Origin: Escherichia phage vB_EcoS_IME347
Reading direction: 5' to 3' (one strand)
DNA: 50,048 nucleotides
Sequence record: MH051918
The notes under the pieces are model-generated. The model was not told the origin of the DNA, did no database searches, and saw only the letters and a program-made list of their open reading frames with translations. Below, piece by piece: positions 5,281-47,666 of this stretch. The first letter of the stretch is position 1. The number at the start of each line of letters is the position of its first letter. Made by a program: the position numbers and the translations under genes.

Positions 5281-5474
5281 TTAACTACGAAGATGCAGCG
5301 CGTGACGCTATCGATGGTATGCTGCCAAATTCGAAGCGTGTGGCTCACTATCGCGGTTTTAAGGGTTCACCTGTTAAACTGTATTGCGAGATTTTGAAGC
5401 TCTCAGAAGTCGATACAGCGCGTTTAGAGGCATACGATTTTAAGCGTTTTTCGATAACCATCGAAACCAAATAG
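5265..5474 (+). CDS. hypothetical early protein (69 aa)
   Basis: In-frame ATG at 5265 within track ORF 5205..5474. Confidence 0.4.
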   Translation: MDSDLINYEDAARDAIDGMLPNSKRVAHYRGFKGSPVKLYCEILKLSEVDTARLEAYDFKRFSITIETK

Positions 5475-5520
5475 CACGAATTGCTAAAAACCTATCAGGG
5501 GAATGCGCTATGATTCCCCT
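5470..5520 (+). promoter_or_regulatory. intergenic motif module (AATAGCACGAATTGCTAAAA + hairpin + TATGAT)
   Basis: Motif overlaps stop TAG; inverted repeat ggggaatgcgc..gattcccc. Confidence 0.5.
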
Positions 5521-6590: not shown

Positions 6591-7174
6591 TGAGCAAAGT
6601 AATCATTCTCAACGCGCCGCCAGCATGTGGCAAAGACACGATAGGTTCAATCATCGCGGATATGAATCAGATTTATGGCGTTCGCATGTTGAGCTTCAAA
6701 GCGCCGATGTTCGAGATCGCCCGAGCTATCCTCGGTGATGCGAACTTTGATTATTTCATGTTCCTTTATAACGATCGGCTCCATAAGGAAAAGCCCGATT
6801 CCATTCTGAACGGTAAAAGCCCGCGCGAGTTCATGATCTGGATTAGCGAGGCAATCATTAAGCCAGAATTCGGCAATGATTATTTCGGGCGTCGAATGGT
6901 TGAGGCTGTCAAGTCAGGCACTGCCCCGGCGATTATCACGGACGGCGGATTCACTGAAGAGACAATCGCACTAATTGAAGCTGGTATTCAGGTTCACGTC
7001 TGCCGACTGCACCGCGACGGATTCACGTTTGAAGGCGACTCGCGAAACTATCTTCACCTGCCTGTGGGCTGGCAAGGCGTAAACGGCTACACCGAAGAAG
7101 ATTTCCAGTTACGTGACGGTGATCCTGATTACACTGCCAGCGTGATTACCGGGAAATACCTGCGTCACTTCTAA
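6590..7174 (+). CDS. P-loop kinase, deoxynucleoside-monophosphate-kinase-like (194 aa)
   Basis: N-terminal IILNAPPACGKDT resembles the GKDT P-loop of phage dNMP kinases (T4 gp1 type); identified by eye, not by search. Confidence 0.5.
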   Translation: MSKVIILNAPPACGKDTIGSIIADMNQIYGVRMLSFKAPMFEIARAILGDANFDYFMFLYNDRLHKEKPDSILNGKSPREFMIWISEAIIKPEFGNDYFGRRMVEAVKSGTAPAIITDGGFTEETIALIEAGIQVHVCRLHRDGFTFEGDSRNYLHLPVGWQGVNGYTEEDFQLRDGDPDYTASVITGKYLRHF

Positions 7175-7224
7175 TAGCACGAATTGCTAAAAACTCGGCG
7201 GGGTAAGCTGTTATAGTTACCCCA
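7174..7224 (+). promoter_or_regulatory. intergenic motif module (AATAGCACGAATTGCTAAAA + hairpin with TGTTATAGT)
   Basis: Motif overlaps stop TAA at 7172-7174; inverted repeat ggggtaagctg..agttacccc. Confidence 0.5.
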
Positions 7225-7441: not shown

Positions 7442-7645
7442 ATGAGCAACACAATCAAACTTCGCACGACTCACGCCGATTGCCCTTGGATTACTCCGGG
7501 CAAGATTTACGAGGCCGAATTGGTTGCGAAAGATGGATTTGACGGACTGTATCGGCTGAAGAATCCAGACTTCGGAGAGGTGCTCACTGCAATTGAGAAC
7601 TCCTGTCATTTGGGCGGGGAAAGTTGGGAAGTAGTCACCGAATAG
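7442..7645 (+). CDS. hypothetical early protein (67 aa)
   Basis: Closely follows the previous ORF; contains the ITPGKIYE motif shared with ORF 4726. Confidence 0.45.
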   Translation: MSNTIKLRTTHADCPWITPGKIYEAELVAKDGFDGLYRLKNPDFGEVLTAIENSCHLGGESWEVVTE

Positions 7646-7692
7646 CACGAATTGCTAAAAGTTCCGCAAGGGCATTTGATAGAATGCCCTTA
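7641..7692 (+). promoter_or_regulatory. intergenic motif module (AATAGCACGAATTGCTAAAA + hairpin with TGATAGAAT)
   Basis: Motif overlaps stop TAG; inverted repeat caagggca..tgccctt enclosing TGATAGAAT. Confidence 0.5.
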
Positions 7693-9537: not shown

Positions 9538-9561
9538 AAACCCGCCTCGGCGGGTTTTTTT
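9538..9561 (+). terminator. intrinsic terminator ending the early gene array
   Basis: GC stem cccgcc-tcg-gcggg followed by a T7 run. Confidence 0.7.
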
Positions 9562-9579
9562 ACGTCTGGAGTATGATAA

Positions 9580-9598
9580 AATAGCACGAAATGTTAAA
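9580..9598 (+). promoter_or_regulatory. intergenic motif copy (AATAGCACGAAATGTTAAA) upstream of terS
   Basis: Motif variant between the terminator and the RBS GGAGG at 9604-9608. Confidence 0.45.
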
Positions 9599-9614
9599 CA
9601 TCGGAGGACGTTTT

Positions 9615-10172: not shown

Positions 10173-11744
10173 ATGTTAGTGTGGGAAGAACTGGACGCAA
10201 CGCAAAAGCTTGCGATCAAGAAAATGAGCGAGGCAAGTTTCGAAAAGATGATTCGGATCTGGTTTCAGCTTATTCAGGCGCAGCAATTTAAACCTAACTG
10301 GCATCACCTTTACCTTTGTCACGAGGTGGAGGAAATCATCGCCGGGCGGCGCGGGAATACGATCTTCAACGTAACGCCGGGTTCCGGTAAAACCGAAGTG
10401 TTTTCGATTCACCTCCCTGTGTACGCGATGCTTCGCGTGAACAAGATCCGAAACCTGAACGTGTCGTTTGCCGATAGTCTCGTCAAGCGTAACAGCAAGC
10501 GAGTGCGAGAAATCATCGCATCGAAAGAGTTCCAAGAGTTATGGCCTTGCGGGTTCGCCACGTCCAAAGATGATGAAATTCAGGTTCTCAATCAGGCTGG
10601 CAAGGTGTGGTTCGAACTGATATCCAAGGCGGCTGGCGGACAAATTACGGGTTCTCGTGGTGGCTACATGAGCGACGGATTCTCCGGGATGGTGATGCTT
10701 GACGATATCGACAAGCCGGACGATATGTTTTCCAAGGTCAAGCGAGAGCGTACACACACGCTCCTGAAGAATACAATCCGAAGCCGAAGGATGCACAACG
10801 AAACGCCGATTATCGCCATACAGCAGCGCCTACACGCGCAGGATTCGACGTGGTTCATGATGTCGGGCGGAATGGGGATAGACTTCGAACAGATCTCAAT
10901 CCCGGCTCTCGTTACTGAGGAATACGGGCAATCGCTTCCTGAATGGTTACGCCCTCACTTCGAGAAGGATGTTCTCTCGTCCGAGTATGTGATGATAGAC
11001 GGAGTGAAGCATTACAGCTTCTGGCCTGACAAGGAATCTGTTCACGATCTGATTGCATTGCGAGAGGCAGACCAGTACACGTTCGACTCGCAGTACCAGC
11101 AGCGCCCGATCGCGCTTGGTGGCTCCGTGTTTAACTCGGAGTGGTGGACGTACTACGGAAACAGCCTTGAGGCTGACGAACCAGATCCCGGCAAGTTTGA
11201 CTATCGTTTCATTACGGCTGATACCGCTCAGAAAACAGGTGAGCTTAATGACTACACTGTATTCTGTCTTTGGGGTAAGAAAAACGATAAGGTGTACTTT
11301 ATCGACGGGGTTCGCGGAAAGTGGAAAGCGCCGGAAATGGAGACTCAGTTTAAATCATTCGTTAGCACGGCATGGCGTCACAATAAGTCGATGGGCGTAC
11401 TCAGAAAAATCTACGTGGAGGATAAAGCGAGCGGGACGGGCTTGATTCAGAATCTGGAGAAGAAAACTCCCGTCCCGATCACGCCATTGCAGCGAAATAA
11501 GGATAAGGTTACTCGCGCGATGGATGCGCAGCCAGTAATCAAGGCCGGGCGCGTTGTTCTGCCTGAATCGCATCCTATGCTTTCCGAAATCATCACGGAG
11601 CATAGCGCATTCACATACGACGACACGCACCCTCACGACGATATTGTCGATAACTTCATGGATGCGGCAAACATCGAACTTCTGACGATAGACGATCCTA
11701 TCGAACGAATGAAACGCCTTGCGGGAATGGCAAAGCGCAAGTAA
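10173..11744 (+). CDS. terL: terminase large subunit
   Basis: Walker A TPGSGKTE and acidic Walker B-like LDDIDKPDD in the N-terminal half, with a C-terminal nuclease-like half; 523 aa. Confidence 0.85.
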   Translation: MLVWEELDATQKLAIKKMSEASFEKMIRIWFQLIQAQQFKPNWHHLYLCHEVEEIIAGRRGNTIFNVTPGSGKTEVFSIHLPVYAMLRVNKIRNLNVSFADSLVKRNSKRVREIIASKEFQELWPCGFATSKDDEIQVLNQAGKVWFELISKAAGGQITGSRGGYMSDGFSGMVMLDDIDKPDDMFSKVKRERTHTLLKNTIRSRRMHNETPIIAIQQRLHAQDSTWFMMSGGMGIDFEQISIPALVTEEYGQSLPEWLRPHFEKDVLSSEYVMIDGVKHYSFWPDKESVHDLIALREADQYTFDSQYQQRPIALGGSVFNSEWWTYYGNSLEADEPDPGKFDYRFITADTAQKTGELNDYTVFCLWGKKNDKVYFIDGVRGKWKAPEMETQFKSFVSTAWRHNKSMGVLRKIYVEDKASGTGLIQNLEKKTPVPITPLQRNKDKVTRAMDAQPVIKAGRVVLPESHPMLSEIITEHSAFTYDDTHPHDDIVDNFMDAANIELLTIDDPIERMKRLAGMAKRK

Positions 11745-11750
11745 ACGAGG

Positions 11751-11797
11751 TATAATCAGGGCTGGATTTTTCCAGCCCTTTTTTATTGGAGGTAGTA
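11751..11797 (+). promoter_or_regulatory. late leader module: TATAAT + hairpin + UUUUUUAUU + GGAGG
   Basis: TATAAT at 11751-11756; stem cagggctgg..ccagccc; T-rich run then GGAGG immediately before the portal ATG; same architecture at 15474-15522 and 17154-17205. Confidence 0.5.
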
Positions 11798-14987: not shown

Positions 14988-15464
14988 ATGGCAATTGCAG
15001 CAAGCTATCAGAAAGATATGTCTATCGCCGTTCCGGGTATGGTGGCAGACACCTCCCGTTACAACATCGACGGCGCTTGCGTACTGAGCGGTGACGTTGA
15101 TATCCTCGTCGGCGTTGCGGTTCAGGTTGACAACGTTCAGGCCGTTGACGGTCACAAAGTCATGAAGCCTATGGCATCCGGCGGCAAGGCTTATGGTGTG
15201 GCGATTCGCTCCCACTTCCAGACTAAAGGCAAAGATGGTCAGATGTACTATGAAGCGGGCGGCGGCATTAACGTAATGACCTCCGGGCGCGTTTGGGTTA
15301 TCTCCAAAGATTCCACCGCTCCGGCGTTTGGTGAAACTGTCAACTTTGACGTTGACGGACAGCAGAAAGCAGACGGCGCGATCGAAACCGCATGGACTTA
15401 TGCGGGCGGCTTCACTACCTATCAGGATTTGAAGCTGGTTGAAATCCAATTGCATCAACTGTAA
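14988..15464 (+). CDS. capsid-associated protein, paralog 1 (decoration/cement-like, putative)
   Basis: RBS AAGGAG; shares YNIDGACV..GVAVQV..YGV..RS..GRVWV motifs with the next ORF. Confidence 0.5.
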   Translation: MAIAASYQKDMSIAVPGMVADTSRYNIDGACVLSGDVDILVGVAVQVDNVQAVDGHKVMKPMASGGKAYGVAIRSHFQTKGKDGQMYYEAGGGINVMTSGRVWVISKDSTAPAFGETVNFDVDGQQKADGAIETAWTYAGGFTTYQDLKLVEIQLHQL

Positions 15465-15473
15465 TAAGTAGCT

Positions 15474-15522
15474 AATATAGGGATTACCTTTTGGTAGTCC
15501 CTTTTTTATTGGAGGTAATAAA
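15474..15522 (+). promoter_or_regulatory. late leader module: TAATATAG + hairpin + UUUUUUAUU + GGAGG
   Basis: Hairpin gggattacc..ggtagtccc at 15480-15502, T run at 15503-15510, GGAGG at 15511-15515. Confidence 0.5.
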
Positions 15523-16017: not shown

Positions 16018-16100
16018 CCGGAAGATCCTGAACCGGAAGAGGGAGGCGAAACTGACCCGGAAGAAGGTTCAGAGGGTTAACACAAAAACAGTTTGACGCT

Positions 16101-16118
16101 TTAACAAAAAGTGCTATC
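16101..16118 (-). promoter_or_regulatory. intergenic motif copy (TTAACAAAAAGTGCTATC, reverse variant) upstream of the capsid gene
   Basis: Reverse complement matches the AATAGCACTTTTTGTTAA variant; followed by a hairpin plus T run at 16121-16147. Confidence 0.4.
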
Positions 16119-16167
16119 ATAAAGCCGTTATCACTTAACGGCTTTTTTCACAAAAGAGGATGTAAAC

Positions 16168-17145
16168 ATGACTAAGAAATATGACGAATTCGAAGCAACC
16201 GTAGTTGGCTCCCACCTGAAGATGCGCGGTGAAAAAGCCGATGCTGATACTCTCGGTATCTGGACTGCTCAGGAGCTTCACAAGCTGAAAAATCAGTCTT
16301 ACGAAAAAGACTATCCGGCAGGTTCCGCTCTGCGAGTATTCCCGGTAACTAACGATCTGTCCCCGGTTGATAAGACCTTCGAATATCAGACCTTTGATAA
16401 GGTTGGTATCGCGCAGATTATCACCGACTACACCGATGATCTTCCTCTGGTTGATGCTATGTCGTCCAGCGAGTTTGGCAAAGTTTTCCGCCTCGGTAAC
16501 GCATACCTGATTTCAATTGACGAAATCAAAGCAGGTCAAGCAACTGGCAAGTCGCTGTCTAATCGCAAGGTTAACGCCGCGCAACTGGCACACGATCAGT
16601 TAGTCAACCGCCTGGTGTTTAAAGGTTCTGTTCCTCACAAAATTGTGAGCGTGTTTAATCACCCGAACATTACCAAGATCACCTCCAAAGGCTGGACGTC
16701 AACCGCTGGTAGCGTAGTAACCAAAAACCCGGAAACCGCAGAAGAAGAACTGACGGCGGCTATTGAGTCGATCCAGACTCTGACGATGGGCGCACACCGT
16801 GCAACGCACATCCTGATCCCGCCGTCAATGCGCAAGGTTCTGACTGTTCGTATGCCTGACTCCACTGAAAGCTATCTGGATTACTTCATGAAGCAGAACG
16901 GCGGAATCACCATCGAATCAATCGCGGAACTGGAGGATATCGACGGCGCTGGCACGAAGGGTGCTCTGGTTTACGAGTACGACCCGATGAATATGTCCAT
17001 CGAAATTCCTGAAGCGTTCAACATGCTTCCTGCGCAGCCGAAAGACCTGCACTTCAAAGTGCCTTGCACCTCTAAGTGTACTGGTCTTACGATTTACCGC
17101 CCACTAACGATTGTCCTGATTACAGGACTTGCAGTAAGCGAGTAA
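16168..17145 (+). CDS. major capsid protein
   Basis: 325-aa ORF with AAGAGGA RBS in the canonical position after scaffold and accessory capsid genes. Confidence 0.7.
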   Translation: MTKKYDEFEATVVGSHLKMRGEKADADTLGIWTAQELHKLKNQSYEKDYPAGSALRVFPVTNDLSPVDKTFEYQTFDKVGIAQIITDYTDDLPLVDAMSSSEFGKVFRLGNAYLISIDEIKAGQATGKSLSNRKVNAAQLAHDQLVNRLVFKGSVPHKIVSVFNHPNITKITSKGWTSTAGSVVTKNPETAEEELTAAIESIQTLTMGAHRATHILIPPSMRKVLTVRMPDSTESYLDYFMKQNGGITIESIAELEDIDGAGTKGALVYEYDPMNMSIEIPEAFNMLPAQPKDLHFKVPCTSKCTGLTIYRPLTIVLITGLAVSE

Positions 17146-17153
17146 ATTGATTA

Positions 17154-17205
17154 CTATAGGGACTCATTAATTTGAGTCCCTTTTTTATTATCTGGAGAAA
17201 CCAAA
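17154..17205 (+). promoter_or_regulatory. late leader module: TACTATAG + hairpin + UUUUUUAUU + GGAG
   Basis: Hairpin gggactcattaatttgagtccc at 17158-17180 followed by a T run and RBS. Confidence 0.5.
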
Positions 17206-18767: not shown

Positions 18768-19170
18768 ATTATCAGTGGCGGCGCGAGCCGCCCTTGGGGA
18801 ATGGCTGGAGATCCCCGGAAACGAATATCCAGTGGCTTACGAGAGCGTTCCTTTTGAGCCTCCTTCGGACGGTTCCAGTTGGTTAAAATTCGACTACGTG
18901 GAGGCGGAAACCGTTCGAGTCGGACTGTCCCGCAAGTGCTCGTATTATGTGGGGATGGTTCAGGTTGGCATACACTTTGCGCCGGGGTTAGGTATGGACT
19001 CAACCCGGCTACTCGCGAAAAACCTTGCTGATTTTTTCGCAGATGGTAAAATGCTGATTAACGGTTGTTATATCGTGGAGGGTGGAGAGGTTCGCCCTGT
19101 TCAAAAATCTGTGGGCGGATGGTTCTATCCTGTTCGCTTTTATGTTCGTTATGACTCAAAGGGAGTATAA
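18757..19170 (+). CDS. tail terminator-like protein (putative)
   Basis: ATG at 18757 after GCGAGGG; immediately upstream of the major tail gene. Confidence 0.4.
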   Translation: MHYELSVAARAALGEWLEIPGNEYPVAYESVPFEPPSDGSSWLKFDYVEAETVRVGLSRKCSYYVGMVQVGIHFAPGLGMDSTRLLAKNLADFFADGKMLINGCYIVEGGEVRPVQKSVGGWFYPVRFYVRYDSKGV

Positions 19171-19173
19171 ATT

Positions 19174-19836
19174 ATGCATTTACCTAACGGTTCTCAAATT
19201 TTCATCGGCTCCACCGTCGCTAATGCTGTAGATGTAACCAACGTTAGCAACGCTGTCGATCCGGTTTTCTCAATGGCTGACACCTCCGGCTTTTCCGAAA
19301 ATGACTACGTTATCGTAACGTCTGCCGCTTGGGGCAAACTTCAGGATCGAGTCCTGCGCGTTAAGTCCGTAGCTGAGGGCGTAAGCGTAACTCTGGAGGG
19401 TATCGATACAACCGATACTAACGTTTTCCCAACTGGCACCAACCCGGCGAAGATTGCGAAGATTACCGCATGGACTGAAATCCCTTGCGTTCAAGATCTT
19501 TCTCAGGACGGCGGCGAGCAGCAGTTTTACACGTATCAGTGTCTGTCCGACGATCAGGAGCAGCAGTTACCGACGTTTAAGTCTGCCGTGTCTCTGACTT
19601 ACACCTTTGCGCACGAATTTGATAACGCGATTTATCCGATCCTGCGCAAACTGGACGAGTCCGGCGACGTTACCCCGCTGCGAATGTTCATCCCTAAAGC
19701 GCGAGAAATGCGCCTGTGGGCTGGTATCTTGTCTTTCAACGAGATTCCGCAGACCAGCGTTAACGAAATGGAAACTGTTTCTTTGTCCGTTTCCCTGAAA
19801 GGTAAATTCACCTTCCTTTCTTCCGAAACTGAATAA
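19174..19836 (+). CDS. major tail protein (putative, V-like position)
   Basis: 220-aa ORF directly upstream of the chaperone/tape-measure block; followed by an intrinsic terminator. Confidence 0.6.
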   Translation: MHLPNGSQIFIGSTVANAVDVTNVSNAVDPVFSMADTSGFSENDYVIVTSAAWGKLQDRVLRVKSVAEGVSVTLEGIDTTDTNVFPTGTNPAKIAKITAWTEIPCVQDLSQDGGEQQFYTYQCLSDDQEQQLPTFKSAVSLTYTFAHEFDNAIYPILRKLDESGDVTPLRMFIPKAREMRLWAGILSFNEIPQTSVNEMETVSLSVSLKGKFTFLSSETE

Positions 19837-19843
19837 TCCCAAT

Positions 19844-19868
19844 GGGGGCGCTTGCGCTCCCTTTTTTG
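19844..19868 (+). terminator. intrinsic terminator after the major tail gene
   Basis: GC stem gggggcgc-ttgc-gcgctccc followed by a T6 run; an extended -10-like TGTAGAAT lies just downstream. Confidence 0.6.
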
Positions 19869-19948
19869 TTTCTGTAGAATCACTGTATCAAATCAATACG
19901 GCGCTGTTTTAACAAAAAGTGCTATCACACCAATCAGGAGAAATGACA

Positions 19949-20263
19949 ATGGCTAAATTCAAGTTCACTCTGGGCGCACTGCCTGACTTCAAACTTCCAG
20001 TATCGTTCAACATGCCGAACGGCGAAGAAGGTCGAATCGTGTTTACCGTTAAGCACAAGACCGCCGCAGAGATTCAGGAGTTATTCCAGAAAGGTGCGGG
20101 CGATAAAGATTTCGTGATGGAATTGGCTGTGGGTTGGGATATCGCGGACGACGAGTTTAACGAAGAGAACGTAGAGCGACTGATCAACTATTACCCCGGC
20201 TCAATGCTCGCACTGACTCAGGCATACATGAAGGCTCTTGCAGGTCAGCGCGTAAAAAACTAA
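19949..20263 (+). CDS. tail assembly chaperone (G-like)
   Basis: ATG 8 nt after CAGGAG; 104 aa; located between the major tail and tape-measure genes; ends at a slippery A AAA AAC site. Confidence 0.6.
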   Translation: MAKFKFTLGALPDFKLPVSFNMPNGEEGRIVFTVKHKTAAEIQELFQKGAGDKDFVMELAVGWDIADDEFNEENVERLINYYPGSMLALTQAYMKALAGQRVKN

Positions 20264-20623: not shown

Positions 20624-23533
20624 ATGGTCGATAAAGTAGCGGGCTTGTCGCTTGATGTTGACGTGTCGCAAGTCGATCGCGCGGTGAAGTCCCTGAATCA
20701 ATTCGCCACGGCGAACGATAAGGCTGCGGACGCAACCCACGAGTTTTTGAACCAGACCGAGATTGCGAAGCAGAAGGCGAAGGCACACGCAAGCGAGCTT
20801 GCGAAACAGTCTCGCGAGTATGCATCAATCCAAAAGGCGATTGACCCGACGATCAGCAAAATGAACCAGCTTCGTGATACAGCGAAGTCCCTTGATTCTC
20901 TGTGGCAAAAGGGATTCATCCCGGACGATGAATTTTTCCGGCTGAGTGCAATCCTTGAGCAGCAGGAAAACGCGCTGAATAAGAATAAGCTTGCACTGAC
21001 TGAAGAGGGCAGGGCGGCGATCGAAGAGGGGAAGGCTAAAGACCGTGCGGCGGCGGCTGGCGACAAGTTCATAAAACAGTTGCAGGAGCAGGCTGCGGCG
21101 GCTGGCAAAACCTCAACGGAAATGCTGGAGCTAAAAGCGGCTCAGTTGGGCGTGTCCCAACAAGCAGCGCCATTCATCGCGCAGCTTAACGCTCAGTCAA
21201 AAGGGATGAAGCTTGCCGGGTTGTCTGCGGGGCAATACTCGCAAGCGATGCGAATGCTTCCGGCTCAGATTACGGACGTGGTGACTTCCCTTGCATCCGG
21301 TATGCCTGTTTGGTTGGTTGCAATCCAGCAGGGCGGGCAGATTAAGGACTCATTCGGCGGGATCGGTAATACGTTCAAGGTTCTGACTTCGTACATTACA
21401 CCGATGCGAATTGCTCTTGCTGGCACGGTTGGAGTTCTGCTCGGACTCGGTAAAGCGGCGTGGGATTCCTACGAGGCGAACAAGGCTCTGTCCGATTCGC
21501 TTATCCTGACTGGTAATTACGCCGGGAAAACTACAGGGGAGATTCGGGAAATGTCTGAGGCGATCGCGGACGGCACTAGCGCTACCGTTTCAACCGTTCG
21601 ACAGATTGCAACCGATTTGGTTAAGTCCGGGAAGTACACTGGCGATCAGATTAAAATCATCACGGCGGCAACTGCTCAGTGGTCTACGGTTACGGGTGAA
21701 TCCGCTGAGGAAGTGACGGGCTATTTCAAGAAGATTGCAGATGATCCGGTTCAAGGTCTTGCGAAGCTTAACGAACAGTTTAACTTCCTTGAAAAAGGTC
21801 AGTTAACCTACATTTCCGGTCTTGAAAAGACTCAAGGGACGACGGCGGCTGTTACTGCGGCGACGAAGCTTTTCGCTGACACGATGGAAACTCGGTTACA
21901 GAAGATTGCGGACTCCGCAACGCCTCTTGAAAAGATGTGGGCGAACATCAAGAAGTGGGCTTCCGACGCTTGGGGTTGGGTTGGAGATCACACTCGTGGC
22001 GCGTTGAACTTGATCATTGACGTTGTAGCCGGGACGGTTGAGCAGGTTCAGCTAATCCTGAACAAAGGCGACATTGTAATCGGTCAATTCATCGTTAGCG
22101 CTACGAAGGCGATGCAGAAAATTCCGGGGATGGGTGATGTTGGCAACGACATTATCAAGAATCAGGAAAAAGTGATTAACGACGCGATCGCCAACAACAA
22201 GGAGCTTGAGAAGTCCATCATTGAGCGTGACAAGCGGATTCGTCAAGGCGAAATGGGTTACATCAACTCCGAAGGGAAGGAAAACTTAGGCAAGAAGTAC
22301 GCCGATGAAACCAAGGAAGCCGTAGAGAAAGAGGCCGAAGCGCTCAAGAAGAAAGGGAAGGCTCAGAAGGTCATTGTAGATCAGGGCGACAAGATCACGG
22401 AGCAGTACAACGCCGATATCATCGCGCTACAGTCTCAGTTGGAAGTCCTGAAAGAGCACAAGACGATTAACGACTCAATTAGCCAGCAGCGCAAGACGCT
22501 ATGGAACGAGCAAGCGAAAGTTAAGGTTCTGGAGGAGGCTGCAACTCAGCGTGTACTGACGAAGGAAGAGAAATCCTATCTCGCCAACAAGGATAAAATC
22601 CTCGCGCTGGCTGAACAGAAAGCAATTCTCGGTGATCAGATTGTTGCTCAGCAGAAGCTTAACGCCCTGCAAGACGAGTCAACAAAGTACGTACTGAAGA
22701 TGGAGGCGCAGTCGAAATCAATTCGCGAAACGTCCGGCCTCGGTGATATCGCTGCGAAGCGACAAAGGGAACTGGATGAACTGAAGGCGTCATGGCAGGG
22801 CAAAGGCGGAAGTGAAGATGATCCGGCATTGCAGAAGATGATTGAAGCCCGGCAGAAAGTCTACGCCGATGAAGATGCGCAGCGTCAAGATTGGCTGGCT
22901 GGAGCGGAGGCGGCGTTTAACAACTACGGCGAAGCGGCAACCAACATGTATGACAATGTTGGTCAGGTTGCAAGCGAGGCGTTAAACGGAATGTCCACGA
23001 TGATGGCAGATTTTCTCATGACCGGGAAGGCCAACTTCGGAGACTTCGCGAAGAGCATTATCAGCATGATCATTAACATGATCACGAAGATGGTTCTGTT
23101 TAACTCAATCGCTGGCCTGATGGGTGGAAATACGTGGAGTTTTGCAGGTGGCATGGGTGGATTCGCTAACGGCGGTTACACTGGCGACGGCGGGAAGTAC
23201 GAACCTAAAGGCGTTGTTCACGGCGGTGAATTCGTATTCACCAAAGAGGCGACGAGCCGGATCGGGGTTGGAAACCTGACTAAGCTGATGCGCGGCTACG
23301 CTAACGGCGGCTCGGTTGGTAATGCCTCTCGCGGCACGGGGTTAACCCTTTCATCTTCATCCGGTCAGGGAACCTACGTCGATGTTAGCGGGATGAAGGT
23401 TGACGTTAATAACGGAAATGACCCTCGCGGCATGGAGCATGGGATCCGAATGATTTTCAACGAAATGATTAACGACGCTTGCTCTCAGGGTGGTAAAGTG
23501 TACAACTATATCAATGAGAAAACGGGAGGTTAA
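20624..23533 (+). CDS. tail tape measure protein
   Basis: 969-aa ORF, largely Ala/Lys/Glu/Gln-rich predicted coiled coil, with a Gly-rich C-terminal region (GGMGGFANGGYTGDGG). Confidence 0.85.
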   Translation: MVDKVAGLSLDVDVSQVDRAVKSLNQFATANDKAADATHEFLNQTEIAKQKAKAHASELAKQSREYASIQKAIDPTISKMNQLRDTAKSLDSLWQKGFIPDDEFFRLSAILEQQENALNKNKLALTEEGRAAIEEGKAKDRAAAAGDKFIKQLQEQAAAAGKTSTEMLELKAAQLGVSQQAAPFIAQLNAQSKGMKLAGLSAGQYSQAMRMLPAQITDVVTSLASGMPVWLVAIQQGGQIKDSFGGIGNTFKVLTSYITPMRIALAGTVGVLLGLGKAAWDSYEANKALSDSLILTGNYAGKTTGEIREMSEAIADGTSATVSTVRQIATDLVKSGKYTGDQIKIITAATAQWSTVTGESAEEVTGYFKKIADDPVQGLAKLNEQFNFLEKGQLTYISGLEKTQGTTAAVTAATKLFADTMETRLQKIADSATPLEKMWANIKKWASDAWGWVGDHTRGALNLIIDVVAGTVEQVQLILNKGDIVIGQFIVSATKAMQKIPGMGDVGNDIIKNQEKVINDAIANNKELEKSIIERDKRIRQGEMGYINSEGKENLGKKYADETKEAVEKEAEALKKKGKAQKVIVDQGDKITEQYNADIIALQSQLEVLKEHKTINDSISQQRKTLWNEQAKVKVLEEAATQRVLTKEEKSYLANKDKILALAEQKAILGDQIVAQQKLNALQDESTKYVLKMEAQSKSIRETSGLGDIAAKRQRELDELKASWQGKGGSEDDPALQKMIEARQKVYADEDAQRQDWLAGAEAAFNNYGEAATNMYDNVGQVASEALNGMSTMMADFLMTGKANFGDFAKSIISMIINMITKMVLFNSIAGLMGGNTWSFAGGMGGFANGGYTGDGGKYEPKGVVHGGEFVFTKEATSRIGVGNLTKLMRGYANGGSVGNASRGTGLTLSSSSGQGTYVDVSGMKVDVNNGNDPRGMEHGIRMIFNEMINDACSQGGKVYNYINEKTGG

Positions 23534-23536
23534 GTA

Positions 23537-23890
23537 ATGGCAATTGTCGATCGCTTTACGTGGTGTACTCAGGTACAAAGCAACGGCGGCGCAATGACGA
23601 CGGAGAATAACGATCGTGAAGTTGTATTCGGGAACGGCTACCGACAGGTAGCCTCTTCCGGGTTCAATACGGAGCGGAGAATTTTCACCATCGTGTACGT
23701 CGGGGAGGATTGGAAGGACGTGAAAGAGTTTTTGACCGGGCATCGCCTGAAGCCGTTTATCTGGCTCCCTCCAGATGGTGAACTAGGGTTGTTCCTCACT
23801 AAAACCAACACGGTTGCAACCAAGCCGATCGCGCCGGGAGTGCAGGAAGTCACCGCCACTATAACGGAGCAGTTTACATCAATGCAGTAA
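23537..23890 (+). CDS. minor tail protein (lambda M-like)
   Basis: 117-aa ORF immediately after the tape measure; lambda-like gene order. Confidence 0.65.
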   Translation: MAIVDRFTWCTQVQSNGGAMTTENNDREVVFGNGYRQVASSGFNTERRIFTIVYVGEDWKDVKEFLTGHRLKPFIWLPPDGELGLFLTKTNTVATKPIAPGVQEVTATITEQFTSMQ

Positions 23891-23893
23891 CCA

Positions 23894-23920
23894 AAAGCCC
23901 GCCTTGCGCGGGTTTTTTTA
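23894..23920 (+). terminator. intrinsic terminator (cccgccttgcgcggg + T run), twin of 26029-26053
   Basis: GC hairpin followed by a T8 run; the same 22-bp sequence recurs at 26029; an extended -10-like CTGTAGAAT follows. Confidence 0.6.
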
Positions 23921-23962
23921 TAGCTGTAGAATAGATGAACATTTATAGAGGAGGTCAGGAAA

Positions 23963-24715
23963 ATGGCTACAGGAAAAGAGAAGTTTGATAACTGTCTGCA
24001 ATCGCTTTATCCCGGCGAGATTATCACGCTGGTAGAAATTGACGGAACGAAATTCGGGGCGCAGGTCTACCGATTCCATGCGGAGAATATCGCATACTCC
24101 CCGGCTGAATTGCTTCAGGCTGCGGAAACTGGAGTTCTCCCTCCGAAGGAAATCACGTTTCAGGGTGAACAGTACGGCGCTCGCCCGTTCGGGATTTCCG
24201 GGATCTCGTTCACCAGTAACGGCAAGGCCGGGAAACCAAAACTCAGCCTGTCTAACCTTGATTCTCAGGTTTCCGCGCTAATCCGATCCTACAACGGCAT
24301 GATGCAAGCGAAGGTTACAATTTGGGTTGCACCAAAAGACCTGATGGACGACGACGGCAATATTGAGGACGGAGCGTTTCGCAAGCTGGTATACTACATC
24401 GAAAGGCCGGACTATGCAGATCGTAACGTCGCCCGATTCGACTTGACCTCTCCATATGATATGGATGGGTTGATGATTCCGCCGCGCACTTCTCAGAGTG
24501 TTTGCTATTGGGCGCAACGTGGTTGGTATCGTTCCGGCAAGGGTTGCTCGTACAACGGGAGTAACTATTTCGATAAGGACAATAACCCGGTTTCCGATCC
24601 GTCATTGGACGTTTGCGCAGGTACTGTCACGGCCTGTAAACTTCGATTCGGACCCGATGCCCCGCTTGATTTTGGTGGCTGCGCGGTTGCTTCACTACAG
24701 AGGAAATATCAATGA
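23963..24715 (+). CDS. minor tail protein (lambda L-like)
   Basis: 250 aa; C-terminal cysteine cluster (CYWAQ ... GCSYNG ... CAGTVTAC); synteny. Confidence 0.65.
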   Translation: MATGKEKFDNCLQSLYPGEIITLVEIDGTKFGAQVYRFHAENIAYSPAELLQAAETGVLPPKEITFQGEQYGARPFGISGISFTSNGKAGKPKLSLSNLDSQVSALIRSYNGMMQAKVTIWVAPKDLMDDDGNIEDGAFRKLVYYIERPDYADRNVARFDLTSPYDMDGLMIPPRTSQSVCYWAQRGWYRSGKGCSYNGSNYFDKDNNPVSDPSLDVCAGTVTACKLRFGPDAPLDFGGCAVASLQRKYQ

Positions 24716-25425
24716 TTCAGGCAAAGATTAAGATCGAAATCATGAGACACGCGCGGGATGTTTATCCCGCTGAATGCTGCGGCATTGTCACGCAAAAGAG
24801 CCGGGTTCAGCGTTATCACCGGATCGATAACGTCCACAAGGAGCCGGAGAAGCATTTCGAAATGGATGCACAACAATATGCCGATGCTCTGGAGGCTGGC
24901 GAACTGGTGAGTGTGGTTCACTCCCATACGGGCGATGGAGCTACTACTCTTCCTTCGGCGCATGATACTTGTGTCTGTAACGAAATGGGCGTGATGTGGA
25001 CAATCGTTAGTTTGCCGGAGGGTGATATGAGATTCGTTGAGCCGTCGCAGCTTCCTCTGATTGGTCGCCCTTGGTCGCTCGGTTCGTTCGATTGTTGGGG
25101 GCTTGTCATGTCGTGGCATAAGGAGCATGGGATCGAGCTTAACGATTTCCGCAAGCCTTACGAGTGGTGGAAGCCGGAATTCGGGGAGAATCTTTATCAG
25201 GAAAACTATCTGATCGAGGGATTCGTTCCAACCAATCAGGAGCCGAAGCCGGGAGACATGATTATCATGCAATTGCAGTCTCCAGTTTGGAACCACGCCG
25301 GAATCTACGTCGGAGACAATCAAATTCTACATCACGCATTCGGCAAGTTATCGCGCAACGATATCTATTCTGGATGGTATCGGGATCATACCGTAATGGT
25401 GTGCAGACATAAGGAGCTTAAATAA
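24712..25425 (+). CDS. tail assembly protein (lambda K-like; JAMM/MPN + NlpC/P60 domains)
   Basis: JAMM-like HSHTGDG...SAHD motif and NlpC/P60-like Cys/His (DCWGLV ... H); ATGA overlap with the upstream gene. Confidence 0.75.
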   Translation: MIQAKIKIEIMRHARDVYPAECCGIVTQKSRVQRYHRIDNVHKEPEKHFEMDAQQYADALEAGELVSVVHSHTGDGATTLPSAHDTCVCNEMGVMWTIVSLPEGDMRFVEPSQLPLIGRPWSLGSFDCWGLVMSWHKEHGIELNDFRKPYEWWKPEFGENLYQENYLIEGFVPTNQEPKPGDMIIMQLQSPVWNHAGIYVGDNQILHHAFGKLSRNDIYSGWYRDHTVMVCRHKELK

Positions 25426-26024
25426 TGAGCGAGTTAAAAAAAATCAAGCTGTCCGGCTCTCTCGGGAAACGCTTCGGCGTTTTCCATTACCTTGCGGTTG
25501 ACAGTTACCCGGAAGCTATCCGGGCGCTGTCCTCGCAGGTGGAGGGGTTTAAGGACTACATGCAAAGCGAGGTTGGCTCGCGAATGAAGTACGCTGTATT
25601 TGTGGACGGGAAGAACATTGGACACAATAATGAGAAGGCTTTCCAGTGTGCGGACGAGGTTCGAATCCTCCCGATCCCAACTGGCTCAAAATCTGGTGGG
25701 TTGTTTCAGGTTGTCCTCGGTGCAGCAATTATGGCTACTGCATTCTTTACGGGCGGTGCTTCTCTCGCTGCAATGGGCGCTCTCGCATCCTCCGCTTTTA
25801 TGATGGGCGGCGCGATGGTTCTCGGTGGAGTAATGCAGATGATTTCACCGCAGCAGGGCGGGCAAAACTTCGAGGTTCAGTCGAGCAAAAATAAACCGTC
25901 GTATGCTTTCGGCGGCGCAGTGAATACCACGGCGGCAGGATATCCGATCCCGCTCCCGTATGGTGAAAGAACGTGCGGCGGAGCGACATTCTCCGCAGGT
26001 TCCTACGCTGAAGATATGGCATAA
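25425..26024 (+). CDS. tail assembly protein (lambda I-like)
   Basis: 199 aa with Gly/Ala-rich hydrophobic C-terminal part; position between the K-like and J-like genes. Confidence 0.65.
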   Translation: MSELKKIKLSGSLGKRFGVFHYLAVDSYPEAIRALSSQVEGFKDYMQSEVGSRMKYAVFVDGKNIGHNNEKAFQCADEVRILPIPTGSKSGGLFQVVLGAAIMATAFFTGGASLAAMGALASSAFMMGGAMVLGGVMQMISPQQGGQNFEVQSSKNKPSYAFGGAVNTTAAGYPIPLPYGERTCGGATFSAGSYAEDMA

Positions 26025-26028
26025 ATAA

Positions 26029-26053
26029 GACCCGCCTTGCGCGGGTTTTTTTT
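26029..26053 (+). terminator. intrinsic terminator (twin of 23894-23920) followed by TGTATAAT
   Basis: Identical cccgccttgcgcggg hairpin plus T run; extended -10-like TGTATAAT at 26058-26065; motif copy at 26079-26099. Confidence 0.6.
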
Positions 26054-26101
26054 CGCCTGTATAATGGCATCACCGATAAATAGCACAAAAGGTTAAACAT
26101 C

Positions 26102-29100
26102 ATGAATCAAAAAGTGATAAGCGGCTCAAAGGGTGGCGGCGGAAGTCCGCACAAGCCCGTTGAAATGGAAGATAACCTGATCTCCATCAACAAAATCAGA
26201 GTTCTACTCGCTGTGTCTGACGGTGAAGTAGATCCCGATTTCGATATGTCCATGTTGTACTTGGACAACGTTCCAGTGATGAACAAAGACGGAACTTACA
26301 ACTACGAAGGAATCAAGGCGGAGTTCCGCCCCGGCACTCAGACGCAGGATTACATTCAGGGGTTCACCGACAGCGCAAGCGAAGTCACTATGAACCGGGT
26401 AATCAAAACTGACACCCCGTTTAGCATCAACGTTACGAACCGGAACCTTTCGGCAATCCGAATCAAGATGTTCATGGCTCGCGGCGTAAAGGTTGAGAGC
26501 AACGGCGACAAGAACGGCGTTCGCGTTGAATACAAGGTTGAAATGGCTGTGGATGGTGGAGCTTTCGAACCTGCACTCACTGACGTGATTGACGGAAAAA
26601 CAATGTCAGGATATGACCGTAGCCGCCGCATTAATCTGCCCTCGTTCAACTCTCAGGTGATCTTGCGAGTGTCTCGCGTAACGCCGGACTCCGACGATTC
26701 CAACCTGATTGACGAGATCCAGTTGCGCAGCTATGCGGAGGTTATTGACGCGAAGTTTCGTTATCCGCTGACCGGGCTACTGTTCGTTGAGTTCGATTCG
26801 CAGATGTTCCCGAACCAGATCCCGAACATTTCAATCAAAAAGAAATGGAAGGTTGTCAATGTACCGACGAACTACAACCCGGTAACTCGTGATTACTCTG
26901 GCACTTGGGACGGAACGTTTAAAAAGGCGTGGACGAACAACCCGGCTTGGGTTCTGTACGACATTATCACCAACCAACGTTACGGGCTTGACCAACGCGA
27001 GCTTGGGATTGATGTTGATAAGTGGTCGCTTTACGACGCCGGGCGCTATTGTGATCAGATGGTTCCAGACGGAAAGGGCGGAACCGAGCCGCGATATCTA
27101 TGCGACGTGGTTATTCAATCGCAGGTTGAGGCGTTTAAACTGGTGCGCGATATCTGCTCAATCTTCCGGGGTATGAGCTTTTGGAACGGCGAAAGCCTGT
27201 CTATTGTGATCGACAAGCCGCGCGAGCCGTCTTACATCTTCACGAACGAGAACGTTGTGAACGGTAATTTCTCATACGCTTTCGCGAGTGAGAAAAGCAT
27301 GTATACGGTGTGCAATGTCCAGTTTGATGATGAAGAGAACCTTTATCAACAGGACGTGGAGCCTGTTTTCGATACTGATGCGGCTCGCAGATTCGGCAAC
27401 AACCCGACGAGCATTACAGCGATCGGATGTACCCGGCGCAGTGAGGCTAATCGCCGGGGGCGCTGGATTCTCAGAACCAATTTACGAAGCACTACGATCA
27501 GTTTTGCTACCGGATTGGAAGGAATGATTCCGCAGATTGGCGATGTTATCGCGGTGGCGGATAACTCATTCTCAAGCAACCTCACGCTTAACCTTTCTGG
27601 TCGCGTGATGGAAGTTTCGGGATTGCAGGTTTTCACCGCCTTTAAGGTTGACGCTCGCGCAGGTGATTTTATTGTCGTAAATAAGCCGGATGGGAAGCCC
27701 GAGAAGAGGACTATCGCATCGGTATCGCCTGACGGCAAGACTATACAGTTAAACGTCGCATTCAGCTTCTCTGTGGCTCCTAACACTATCTTTGCAATTG
27801 ACCGCACGGACGTAGCGTTACAGCAATTCGTTGTTACGGATATTTCCAAGGGCGACAATGAAGAAGAGTTTGTGTTTAGCATTACTGCGGTTGAGTATGA
27901 CCCGAACAAGTACGACGCGATCGACTACGGAGTAAACGTTGACGAAAGGCCTACAAGCATTGTCGATCCTGACAAGCTTCCTCAGCCGCAAAACGTGCAG
28001 ATTGAGTCCTTCTCTCGTGTGGTTCAGGGCGTAAGCGTTGAAACGATGGTTATCAGTTGGGATAAGGTTCAGTATGCGGCTCAGTACGAAATCCAATGGC
28101 GAAAGGGTAATGGCAACTGGATTAACACGACACCAACGGCGAACAATGAAACGTTTATCGAAGGCATTTACGCCGGGCAATACTTCGTTCGGGTTCGCGC
28201 TGTATCGTCGGCGGGCAATGCTTCAATGTGGTCTGAAGTTGTCAGCGCATCACTGACGGGTAAAGTCGGAGAGCCGGGTTCGCCAATTAACTTCACGGCG
28301 TCCGATGATGTTGTTTTTGGCATTCGCCTGAAATGGGGCATGCCGGAAGGGACTGAAGATACCGCATATATTGAGGTTCAGCAGTCACCAAACAACAGCA
28401 TTGAAAATGCATCACTGCTAACGCTCGTTCCATACCCTCAACATGAGTATTTCCATACTCCACTTGAGGCCGGGAAGATGATCTTCTACCGCATTCGTGC
28501 GATAGACAGGATCGGAAATGTGTCCGGGTGGACTGACCTGATTCCGGGGATTGCCTCAACTGACGTTGAGAGCATTATCGGGGAAATCAAGGTTGATATC
28601 GAAAACTCCGAGGGGTTCAAGTGGTTGCAGGAAAATGCGGTAGATGCAAACTCGAAGATTCACGGGGCGGCTGAAGCGATAATCGAAACCACGCTGGCTA
28701 ACGATCGTGATGTTCGTATTCAGCGCAAGCGGAACGGGAAGTTCACTGCTCAGTTTAAGCAGTCATTCCAGTTAATCGCAGATGAAACGCAAGCAAGAGT
28801 TGAGCAGTATCAGGAGTTACAGGCCGACTTTGACGGAAAGATAACCGCAACTTCAACTCAGCTTAACCAGGCGATCGCTAACGAAAGGGAGGCGAGAACA
28901 ACTCAGGTAAACCAGATTAGCGCAACGTTCGGCGGAAACCTTGACGATCTTAGCGATAGGGTTGATGGTGATATCGGGGATCTTAATGGAAGGGTTGATG
29001 GTGAGGTTCGGGCTCGTCAAGCTGCGATCTCAAACGTAAACCAAGCCATTGCGAACGAAACCGAGGCGCGAGTTCAGGCTATCAATGATTTGAAAGCGCA

Positions 29101-29683
29101 GGTTGGCAGCGACATTCAAGGCCAGCTAACGCAGTTGAATCAGGCGATCGCCAATGAGACTTCGGCGCGAGTTTCGGCTGATACGGCTCTTAGCACAAGG
29201 ATCGGGAATAACACTGCGGCTCTGAACCAGAAACTTGATTCATGGGCTAACGCAACATCGGTTGGCGCTATGTACGGCGTCAAGCTTGGGTTGAGGTATA
29301 ACGGGGTTGACTACTCCGCAGGGTTGGCAATGTCTCTGGTTGGATCTGGTAATACTGTCAAGTCTCAGCTTTTGCTACAGGCCGACAGGTTCGCAGTTTT
29401 CAACGGGGCAAACAACCAATACCGATATCCGTTCGTTGTTGAGGGCGGGCAGGTTATACTCAGCAGCACGGTTATTAAGGACGGTTTCATTACGAACGCG
29501 ATGATCGGGAACGAGATCAAGTCAAACAACTATGTTGCAGGTCAGACAGGATGGAGGATTGATAAGAACGGTAACTTTGAGATTAACGGCAAGACGGGAA
29601 CCGGAAGGTTGACCATCAACAATAACACTGTGAGCGTTTACGACGCGAACAACCGCCTACGCGTTCGCATGGGCTTGTGGTAA
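26102..29683 (+). CDS. central tail fiber / host specificity protein (lambda J-like)
   Basis: 1193-aa ORF at the end of the lambda-like tail cluster; C-terminal region contains degenerate QLNQAIANE-type repeats. Confidence 0.85.
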   Translation: MNQKVISGSKGGGGSPHKPVEMEDNLISINKIRVLLAVSDGEVDPDFDMSMLYLDNVPVMNKDGTYNYEGIKAEFRPGTQTQDYIQGFTDSASEVTMNRVIKTDTPFSINVTNRNLSAIRIKMFMARGVKVESNGDKNGVRVEYKVEMAVDGGAFEPALTDVIDGKTMSGYDRSRRINLPSFNSQVILRVSRVTPDSDDSNLIDEIQLRSYAEVIDAKFRYPLTGLLFVEFDSQMFPNQIPNISIKKKWKVVNVPTNYNPVTRDYSGTWDGTFKKAWTNNPAWVLYDIITNQRYGLDQRELGIDVDKWSLYDAGRYCDQMVPDGKGGTEPRYLCDVVIQSQVEAFKLVRDICSIFRGMSFWNGESLSIVIDKPREPSYIFTNENVVNGNFSYAFASEKSMYTVCNVQFDDEENLYQQDVEPVFDTDAARRFGNNPTSITAIGCTRRSEANRRGRWILRTNLRSTTISFATGLEGMIPQIGDVIAVADNSFSSNLTLNLSGRVMEVSGLQVFTAFKVDARAGDFIVVNKPDGKPEKRTIASVSPDGKTIQLNVAFSFSVAPNTIFAIDRTDVALQQFVVTDISKGDNEEEFVFSITAVEYDPNKYDAIDYGVNVDERPTSIVDPDKLPQPQNVQIESFSRVVQGVSVETMVISWDKVQYAAQYEIQWRKGNGNWINTTPTANNETFIEGIYAGQYFVRVRAVSSAGNASMWSEVVSASLTGKVGEPGSPINFTASDDVVFGIRLKWGMPEGTEDTAYIEVQQSPNNSIENASLLTLVPYPQHEYFHTPLEAGKMIFYRIRAIDRIGNVSGWTDLIPGIASTDVESIIGEIKVDIENSEGFKWLQENAVDANSKIHGAAEAIIETTLANDRDVRIQRKRNGKFTAQFKQSFQLIADETQARVEQYQELQADFDGKITATSTQLNQAIANEREARTTQVNQISATFGGNLDDLSDRVDGDIGDLNGRVDGEVRARQAAISNVNQAIANETEARVQAINDLKAQVGSDIQGQLTQLNQAIANETSARVSADTALSTRIGNNTAALNQKLDSWANATSVGAMYGVKLGLRYNGVDYSAGLAMSLVGSGNTVKSQLLLQADRFAVFNGANNQYRYPFVVEGGQVILSSTVIKDGFITNAMIGNEIKSNNYVAGQTGWRIDKNGNFEINGKTGTGRLTINNNTVSVYDANNRLRVRMGLW

Positions 29684-36845: not shown

Positions 36846-36900
36846 CGCGTAACAGGAGTTTACCCGCTACGCGCTTTTGTGTTTTAGCTATTTGTGCTCT
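36846..36900 (-). promoter_or_regulatory. hairpin plus reverse-orientation motif copy at the end of the HTH gene
   Basis: On the - strand: motif GAGCACAAATAGCTAAAA (36883-36900, overlapping the stop of gene 36884..37327) followed by stem cgcgta..tacgcg and a T run. Confidence 0.45.
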
Positions 36901-37327
36901 CGACTTCATCCTTTCGAACTACGCGCATGAACTTGCGGTTCTTGCATCGTTTTTCAAGGCACTTTCCGTTAGAGTCGAACTTGAGATCGAATCGCAGCCA
37001 GCTTGCGCGATACCCGGTACAACCCTGACGACGATACGCGCGATGCGCCGCCTCCGCTCCCTGCCAAGAAATCATGCCGCGAACTTTCCATTCGTTCACA
37101 TTCTGATTTGTTACCTTCAGGGCTTTCGCCGTGGCGGAGGGGGAGCCGTAGAATTCGATCAGGGCGTCAAGTCTGGCGCGTAGTCCGGCGCGAACCTCAT
37201 CTTTCAGGATGTAGAATCCGCATCGCTTGCGAGGCTTTACATCTTTGCCCCGTCGTGTACCATTGTTCCCGTTCAGGTGACGACGATCGATTTCCCCGGT
37301 TGATTCTGCAATACGCTTGATTGTCAT
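36884..37327 (-). CDS. HTH-domain protein (YdaS/Cro-like), putative regulator
   Basis: Central segment GSPSATAKALKVTNQNVNEWKVRGMIS resembles a YdaS/Cro-type helix-turn-helix; divergent from the helicase gene. Confidence 0.4.
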   Translation of the reverse strand: MTIKRIAESTGEIDRRHLNGNNGTRRGKDVKPRKRCGFYILKDEVRAGLRARLDALIEFYGSPSATAKALKVTNQNVNEWKVRGMISWQGAEAAHRAYRRQGCTGYRASWLRFDLKFDSNGKCLEKRCKNRKFMRVVRKDEVESTNS

Positions 37328-37339
37328 AATAAATTCCTC

Positions 37340-37359
37340 AATAGCACTTTTTGTTAAAA
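37340..37359 (+). promoter_or_regulatory. intergenic motif copy (AATAGCACTTTTTGTTAAAA) upstream of the helicase gene
   Basis: Variant motif followed by inverted repeat gcgtg..cacgc enclosing TATTATAC. Confidence 0.45.
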
Positions 37360-47601: not shown

Positions 47602-47666
47602 CTTTATTTCCTTGTTTTGTCGTTTCGTTTCGATGGGGTGATAATATCAAATCACCCCGAGGTTGT

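Follow-up and report, generated by a model that had tools for sequence, protein, structure and literature searches.

Terminator-like hairpins overlapped by putative sigma70-type promoters at tail gene junctions of a T1-like phage

T1-like phages use only the RNA polymerase of their host, and we know of no late-gene regulator described for them. The timing and proportioning of their structural genes is the question on which three short DNA modules in the tail gene cluster of Escherichia phage vB_EcoS_IME347 (sequence record MH051918) bear. The sequence analyzed, referred to here as the window, is the complete genome of this T1-like siphovirus (Drexlerviridae; 50,048 bp), and the closest GenBank records are the Sertoctavirus phages SRT8, IME-JL8 and BrunoManser, with ~78% identity across the tail region. 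Each module consists of a GC-rich hairpin, a run of T residues and a hexamer resembling the -10 promoter element. The order of the tail genes is shared with phage lambda, whose homologues run tube, chaperones, tape measure, M, L, K, I, J. In lambda, Q antitermination lets a single long transcript from pR' cover them all, and to our knowledge no internal terminator-promoter pairs are present there between M and L or between I and J.

The late region of phage T1 has been described, in the account relayed by PMC11447400, as a set of "transcriptons", which are terminator-flanked modules containing RpoD promoters (Roberts et al. 2004). The T1 GenBank record (NC_005833) annotates no promoters, but it does annotate rho-independent terminators at 18770-18796, 22793-22816 and 24972-24994. 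These lie after the major tail, gpM-like and gpI-like genes, that is, at all three junctions orthologous to those of the window modules, and the T1 and window sequences align there, as is expected of transcripton boundaries of the T1 type. Phage TLS likewise has terminators (T42, T46 and T49) at the same three places, T49 being located between gpI and gpJ (I|J; PMC11447400, Supplementary Table S1). TLS also resembles the window in carrying a copy of a 21-nucleotide (nt) repeat, DR8, directly after the I|J terminator (PMC11447400), while differing from it in that its two hairpins are not identical. Outside this family, the T7 class II terminators double as E. coli sigma70 promoters (bioRxiv 10.64898/2026.02.12.705533) and, like the modules, combine both activities in one short DNA element. 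They are hairpin-less, serve T7 RNA polymerase and have a TGn extended -10, whereas the window modules have a hairpin, would serve the host polymerase, place a -35-like element in the loop and lack a canonical TGn. Finally, single-molecule work has shown that polymerase often remains bound to the DNA once it has terminated at an intrinsic site, and can start again close by (PMC6978380, PMC6978322, PMC11347151). These recycling studies concern terminators near promoters, at distances of up to ~1 kb, whereas in the window modules the release site would fall inside the spacer of the next promoter, where polymerase might be recycled.

An earlier note on this sequence had suggested that terminator-promoter couples reset transcription between tail gene blocks. 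This idea is the published T1 transcripton hypothesis and was largely anticipated by earlier T1 work; it gains comparative support from the T1 annotations and from a promoter signature conserved at fixed spacing. What is new here is modest: a -35-like element inside the hairpin at a fixed 17-nt spacing and its conservation across the family, which are not described in the portions of the T1 and TLS literature surveyed, and a mirror geometry elsewhere in the genome. We conclude that each module is probably an intrinsic terminator physically overlapped by a host sigma70-type promoter, and thus a bifunctional boundary within the late operon. That termination and initiation take place at the three modules, and with what efficiency, we infer from sequence.

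Hairpins and U-tracts at three tail gene junctions

Pfam assignments resolve a lambda-type tail cluster in the window and place all three modules within it, in agreement with the location given previously. Module 1 lies at the tube|chaperone junction, module 2 at M|L and module 3 at I|J, each beginning a few bases 3' of a stop codon on the coding strand. Modules 2 and 3 share the 22-mer CCCGCCTTGCGCGGGTTTTTTT, a hairpin with its T-run, and the two copies reported in the earlier note were recovered as exactly two, both on the + strand (23898-23919 and 26031-26052). No further copy is present in the window at up to 3 mismatches and 0 are expected (100 shuffles); the exact twin exceeds chance. 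The T-runs end at 23919 (module 2) and 26053 (module 3), and the -10-like element said to follow each twin within 10 nt is indeed there: CTGTAGAAT starts at 23924, 5 nt past the first T-run, and TGTATAAT starts at 26058, 5 nt past the second. The promoter-like sequence after the twin hairpins takes the form TGTAGAAT or TGTATAAT. Aligned in register, the two 35-nt modules (23898-23932 and 26031-26065) share 30 of 35 positions; the sequences on either side of them are unrelated. A similar arrangement had been pointed out after the major tail gene (19844-19880), and it consists of the hairpin GGGGGCGCTTGCGCTCCC at 19844-19861, T6, and CTGTAGAAT at 19872-19880. The window has 9 copies of the string TGTAKAAT where 2.06 would be expected.

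The three hairpins carry every sequence hallmark of intrinsic terminators. The hairpin of module 1, located by terminator scan and RNA folding (GGGGGCG-CTTG-CGCTCCC, 19844-19861, + strand), is followed by a T-run at 19862-19867. That of module 2 (23893-23917, + strand) has a GC core, CCCGC/GCGGG, at 23898-23902/23908-23912, a CTTGC loop and an A-U extension, with the T-run at 23913-23919. That of module 3 (26027-26049, + strand) has its GC core at 26031-26035/26041-26045, again with a CTTGC loop, and the T-run at 26046-26053. The stem-loops are GC-rich, with stems of 5 G-C pairs lengthened by A-U pairs, and fold at -12.7, -13.7 and -13.1 kcal/mol for modules 1, 2 and 3 (z-scores against shuffles of -2.2, -3.4 and -3.1). 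In each case the U-tract lies directly 3' of the stem on the coding strand (T6, T7 and T8, respectively). Minus-strand terminators were rejected at these sites; the reverse hairpins have poor T-tracts (CTTTTGG, CTTATTT) and there are no minus-strand genes nearby.

We extended the analysis to relatives by collecting 48 loci with a gene for a gpL relative (57-100% identity) and adding T1, SRT8 and BrunoManser, which yielded 94 unique junction sequences. Folded one by one, all 94 form a GC hairpin with a U-run, and the median number of U in the 9 nt past the GC core is 8. Between 18 and 23 distinct stems are found per junction, with several Watson-Crick pair types per stem position; the stem of module 1, for instance, covaries among relatives (GGGGAAGC/GCTTCCCC). 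The structure is kept while the sequence drifts, and therefore the pattern matches the prediction for a functional RNA hairpin. RNAalifold, applied to MAFFT alignments of the three junctions, called little or no consensus structure, which is attributed to variable loop lengths that misregistered the alignment columns. It was replaced by the sequence-by-sequence folding and by loop-anchored pair tables.

Stable stem-loops directly past stop codons and flanked by AU-rich sequence might instead be mainly RNA 3'-end stabilizers or processing signals, which would set the half-lives of segments within one long late transcript. Such a role is compatible with terminators and often accompanies them. 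We consider it quite unlikely as the main function, since an uninterrupted, conserved U7-8 abutting the stem is a specific mark of intrinsic termination, and since the TTG-17-TAnAAT geometry described below would be left unexplained.

The covariation of the stems also bears on the possibility that the modules act at the DNA level, either as a palindromic operator for a phage regulator placed over the promoter or as a recombination linker for swapping tail-tip and host-range modules. In favor of this, the window and T1 have almost the same sequence across I|J, with far closer agreement than in the flanking coding DNA (74% identity for the gpJ N-termini). A copy of the 21-nt repeat, probably the site of a protein, is also present at this junction, and the phage encodes a putative small Cro-like helix-turn-helix regulator. 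However, the stems covary rather than keep a fixed sequence, which points to structure and not to a sequence-specific operator, and the T-run is one-sided. The recombination idea is compatible with a terminator overlapped by a promoter and could be a by-product of it. A DNA-level element as the explanation therefore seems very improbable to us.

Promoter-like elements at a fixed distance

In all three modules the loop and the 3' arm of the hairpin spell the hexamer TTGCGC, and exactly 17 nt separate it from the TAGAAT or TATAAT downstream. In module 1, TTGCGC (19852-19857, + strand) precedes TAGAAT (19875-19880), whose columns are among those conserved in the -10-anchored profile and which is abutted by TG at 19873-19874; the TTG-N20-TANAAT match spans 19852-19880. 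In module 2, TTGCGC (23904-23909, + strand) lies within the hairpin and TAGAAT (23927-23932, abutting TG at 23925-23926) is followed 30 nt on by the ATG of gpL. In module 3, TTGCGC (26037-26042, + strand), again within the hairpin, precedes the consensus -10 hexamer TATAAT (26060-26065, abutting TG at 26058-26059). The T-run therefore doubles as the putative promoter spacer, and terminator and promoter overlap. The window holds 7 matches to TTG-N20-TANAAT against 1.6 expected, and 3 of the 7 are these modules.

This geometry is widespread among the relatives. A TAnnnT hexamer is located within 18 nt past the T-run in 83 of the 94 unique junctions, including 33 of 33 at I|J. Positions T1, A2 and T6 of the hexamer are near-invariant and variation is found mainly at positions 3-4 (TAGAAT, TATAAT, TACAAT, TAAAAT, TAATAT). 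The hexamer columns are the most conserved in a -10-anchored profile, and the adjacent spacer columns are poorly conserved. Of the 83 hexamer-bearing junctions, 60 have a TTG ahead of the hexamer at a distance of exactly 17 nt, whereas shuffles of the 40 nt upstream give an expectation of 2.6, and 66 have it at 16-18 nt. The exact spacing is seen at every junction: tube|chaperone (19/26 hexamer-bearing unique relatives), M|L (16/24) and I|J (25/33). The sites thus show what is expected of sigma70 promoters, a -10 with T1, A2 and T6 and a TTG-containing -35-like hexamer at 17 +/- 1 nt.

Three comparisons served as controls. Terminators in the window that run straight into a ribosome-binding site have neither a TTG in the loop nor a -10 downstream. 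In a set of 2.9 million viral contigs we found 78 exact matches to CCCGCCTTGCGCGGGTTTTTTT; TAnAAT is found at exactly +7 in every one of the 44 that lie at a T1-like M|L or I|J junction, and in that span in none of the remaining 34, which are from unrelated phages and include about a dozen directly ahead of a conserved open reading frame. Lastly, the M|L lineages that lack the -10 (L032, L033, L040, L041) also lack TTG in the loop. We considered whether TTG is kept as part of a CUUG tetraloop and rejected this, the CUUG loop being present only at 19851-19854. Loops elsewhere read CTTGC, ATTGC, CTTTGT, CGTTGC or ATT, and TTG shifts between loop and 3' arm while its 17-nt distance to the hexamer stays. 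The constancy of the spacing despite changing loops argues against an explanation by tetraloop stability.

The earlier note had labeled the downstream elements as extended -10, and this label has to be amended. The textbook extended -10 is TGnTATAAT, in which a single base separates the TG (-15/-14) from the hexamer. In the window modules TG abuts the hexamer and is out of register by one base, and the putative promoter is more accurately written TTGCGC-17 nt-TA[G/T]AAT, its -35-like hexamer being part of the hairpin. A canonical TGn is found in 10 of the 83 relatives, mostly at M|L. The abutting arrangement (TG-TAnAAT) is itself frequent, being present in 48 of 83 junctions (window and loci L001-L050) against ~5 expected, and in 22 of 26 at tube|chaperone; we know of no sigma70 rule that explains it.

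A number of points weigh against overlapping terminators and promoters. The -35-like TTGCGC matches TTGACA at only 3 of 6 positions, TTG being the conserved part, a standard promoter scan of the window did not call the three module sites, and a canonical extended -10 was rejected because of the register of the TG. The four M|L lineages named above keep the terminator without the promoter, and therefore the promoter is dispensable there and read-through must suffice. The relatives counted are linked by phylogeny, and their conservation counts are not independent of one another. In folding energy the three hairpins belong with the weakest of the late-region terminators (TAC-T|TMP, before the tape measure gene, folds at -12.8 kcal/mol, terS at -13.9 and four others at -15.7 to -17.7), and termination at -12.7 to -13.7 kcal/mol may therefore be partial. 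Our literature search on Drexlerviridae found no data on transcript 5' or 3' ends. The 2024 paper on TLS, which allowed up to 2 mismatches to TTGACA-N15-19-TATAAT, reported three promoters only and did not confirm transcriptons (PMC11447400). The TLS junctions (loci L014/L015) nevertheless read TTGTGC-17-TATAAT at M|L and TTGCGC-17-TACAAT at I|J, and they fail the 2-mismatch rule because of the weak -35 only. This suggests that late promoters of this kind may have been overlooked since their weak -35 is hidden within terminator hairpins.

Several of these points would fit modules that are terminators or attenuators only, which tune protein ratios (much tube, little tail-tip protein), with TAnAAT retained as an AT-rich feature in some other capacity, for instance to help determine termination from downstream, as an RNase E site or as context for translation initiation. 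The weak -35 match, the silent promoter scan and the inability of the TLS authors to confirm promoters (PMC11447400) all speak for this, as do the four M|L lineages and several other late terminators that lack the hexamer although the genes downstream of them must be expressed. On the other hand, the hexamer has the signature of sigma70, with T1, A2 and T6 near-invariant and positions 3-4 free, it is tied to TTG at exactly 17 nt far above expectation, TTG and hexamer are lost together, and the same hairpin in unrelated phages is without the hexamer. We therefore regard an attenuator-only role as unlikely. If the promoters should be inactive, the modules would be ordinary internal attenuators.

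A proposed stop-and-restart boundary and the ancestry of the twin

If each module is a terminator overlapped by a promoter, the same DNA would act twice. At the RNA level, the GC hairpin with U7-8 would stop or attenuate transcripts arriving from the upstream block (tube; tape measure protein and gpM; gpL, gpK and gpI). At the DNA level, the loop and 3' arm would provide the -35-like TTGCGC and TAGAAT or TATAAT the -10, with a 17-nt spacer made up of the rest of the 3' arm, the T-run and ~5 nt. Transcription could then restart 20-60 nt before the next gene (the assembly chaperone, gpL or gpJ), and each block would become its own unit, or transcripton, with its level set locally.

It seems possible, though we consider it doubtful, that the overlap itself is functional, with a terminating polymerase dropped onto the next promoter and recycled into new initiation, and with the transcripts of the mirror modules described below escaping their own terminators. 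The possibility arises because the RNA-release site falls within the spacer of the next promoter, and it is in keeping with the retention of polymerase on DNA and with the T7 terminator-promoters cited above. Such stop-restart coupling, if true, would be a family-wide system that insulates each late block and sets its level locally, acting in a phage without a polymerase or sigma factor of its own and without a known late activator. The modules give concrete predicted start sites for three tail units. At ~35 bp for terminator and promoter combined they could also be of practical interest for genetic insulation and as a natural test bed for polymerase recycling.

The earlier note had further proposed that the twin hairpin marks a duplicated regulatory element. 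The exact 22-nt identity within one genome is in favor of duplication, but this proposal is weakly supported otherwise. T1 carries the identical 22-mer twin, followed by TGTAGAAT and TGTATAAT, and the twin is present in ~14 T1-type contigs at the same two junctions, ~2.18 kb apart. The length shared between the two hairpins is 22 nt in T1, 18 nt in Sertoctavirus and fragments only in other lineages, which have diverged hairpins at the same positions. Since the same twin is found at the orthologous T1 junctions, it is an inherited family feature that predates the divergence of the window phage and T1, and not a recent duplication. A small mobile repeat inserted twice, similar to a repetitive extragenic palindrome (REP) or a miniature inverted-repeat transposable element (MITE), would likewise account for the identity, but neither terminal repeats nor target duplications accompany the two copies, which have dissimilar flanks and are the only ones in the window. 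A recent duplication or insertion is thus extremely improbable. The simplest account is that the two sites are under the same dual constraint, whether or not they were originally duplicated; the two hairpins would be identical because both have to serve as terminator and promoter, the pair having been inherited since before the split from T1.

Exact copies of CCCGCCTTGCGCGGGTTTTTTT were also observed in unrelated viral contigs (loci L054, L057, L058, L076, L081, L091, L111, L113-L116, L118), where the hairpin lies directly 5' of a conserved open reading frame beginning ATGACGCCTATGTTTCGCGTCGTC and is not followed by a -10. This hairpin form therefore seems to have arisen or spread as a generic terminator.

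Neighboring genes and other promoter-like elements

The genes around the modules are all encoded on the + strand. Module 1 is preceded by the tail tube (major tail) gene (19174-19836; Pfam PF08813 Phage_tail_3, E=3.8e-64) and followed by the tail assembly chaperone gene (19949-20263; PF08748, E=1.7e-33), whose start was inferred from the BrunoManser annotation. The tape measure gene (20624-23533; Pfam) and a gpM-like minor tail gene (23537-23890; PF05939, E=8.9e-18) lie upstream of module 2. The twin hairpins enclose as one unit (23963-26024) the tail tip genes gpL (23963-24715; PF05100), gpK (24712-25425; PF00877 and PF14464) and gpI (25425-26024; PF06805). Module 3 is followed by a gpJ-like tail tip/host-specificity gene (26102-29683; PF09327, PF24801, PF13550). 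An Rfam scan of the whole window gave no matches, and hence no known antiterminator or leader RNA.

Other couples of promoter-like and terminator-like elements were observed upstream in the late region. In three mirror modules at head genes (11727-11779 at terL|portal; 15449-15502; 17128-17181 after the capsid gene) TTGnnn-17/18-TAnnAT lies immediately upstream of a hairpin, with 1 nt (0-3 nt) between the end of its -10 and the stem, and the T-run of the hairpin leads into the Shine-Dalgarno (SD) sequence (TTTTTATTGGAGG). Family-wide conservation of this geometry was examined for the post-capsid site, where 39 of 44 unique relatives keep it, each of them with TTG at 16-18 nt; the TTG is located in coding sequence there, and therefore its conservation may be partly protein-driven. 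A start ~7 nt past the mirror -10 would fall inside the 5' arm. RNA begun at this promoter would then be unable to fold into the terminator, whereas RNA arriving from farther upstream could do so, which would amount to the same stop-and-restart logic.

The capsid gene has a promoter-like element of its own at 16093-16150 in the window, conserved across the family, with TTGACG, a 16-nt spacer consisting of the reversed 21-nt repeat, and TGcTATCAT. A hairpin with T6 (AAGCCGTTAtcactTAACGGCTTTTTT) follows directly in the 5' leader, 17 nt before the capsid ATG, and resembles a leader attenuator. A fourth terminator-then-promoter couple, of different geometry, is located before the small terminase gene (9538-9599). 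It comprises the hairpin CCCGCCtcgGCGGG with T7 and a canonical extended -10, TGaTAAAAT (9574-9582), which overlaps a copy of the 21-nt repeat (9579-9599), and the arrangement is common to T1.

The 21-nt direct repeat (DR) AAATAGCACnnnTTGnTAAAA has 30 copies in the window against 0.7 expected (for example 2583-2603, 5469-5489, 7172-7192 and 7640-7660 on the + strand, and 47666-47686 and 48858-48878 on the - strand). A -10-like hexamer is found 18-22 nt past the repeat in 25 of the 30 copies, at exactly 19 nt in 20 of these 25, and with a true TGn in 12. In 12 copies a covarying inverted repeat (e.g. AGGGGAAT...ATTCCCCT) holds the -10 within its loop or 3' arm, and after it come ACACCAAACGAA or ATCGAAACGAA and then an SD sequence. 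The repeat would span about -52 to -32, and there is no -35 at 17 nt. T1 shows the same pattern of repeat and -10 in 19 of 24 copies. To judge from this pattern, the repeat with its -10 looks like the main (early) promoter class of the phage; the TLS paper reports the 21-nt repeat only, without an associated -10 (PMC11447400).

Two elements of this type are located next to the modules. The variant copy AAATAGCACAAAAGGTTAAAC (26078-26098, + strand), which corresponds to DR8 of TLS and is conserved in most lineages, lies 12 nt past the -10 of module 3 and ends 3 nt before the gpJ ATG. Its position downstream of the I|J -10 is atypical, and a protein bound there would be expected to block rather than help. 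Beside module 1, a DR-type promoter-like element on the - strand (19882-19927) combines a reversed repeat (19907-19927) with TGaTACAGT (19890-19882), 19 nt apart. It is directed against the TAGAAT of module 1, into the hairpin and the 3' end of the tail tube gene. Its conservation extends to T1, BrunoManser, L006 and L017, whereas TLS-like lineages lack it.

A 147-amino-acid protein (36884-37327, - strand), assigned to PHROG 2856 "transcriptional regulator" and showing a sub-threshold Cro-like helix-turn-helix, may be regarded as a candidate binder of the 21-nt repeat. Its gene is divergent from the helicase gene, and the intergenic region carries a copy of the repeat (37339-37359) together with TTGACTGTATAAT.

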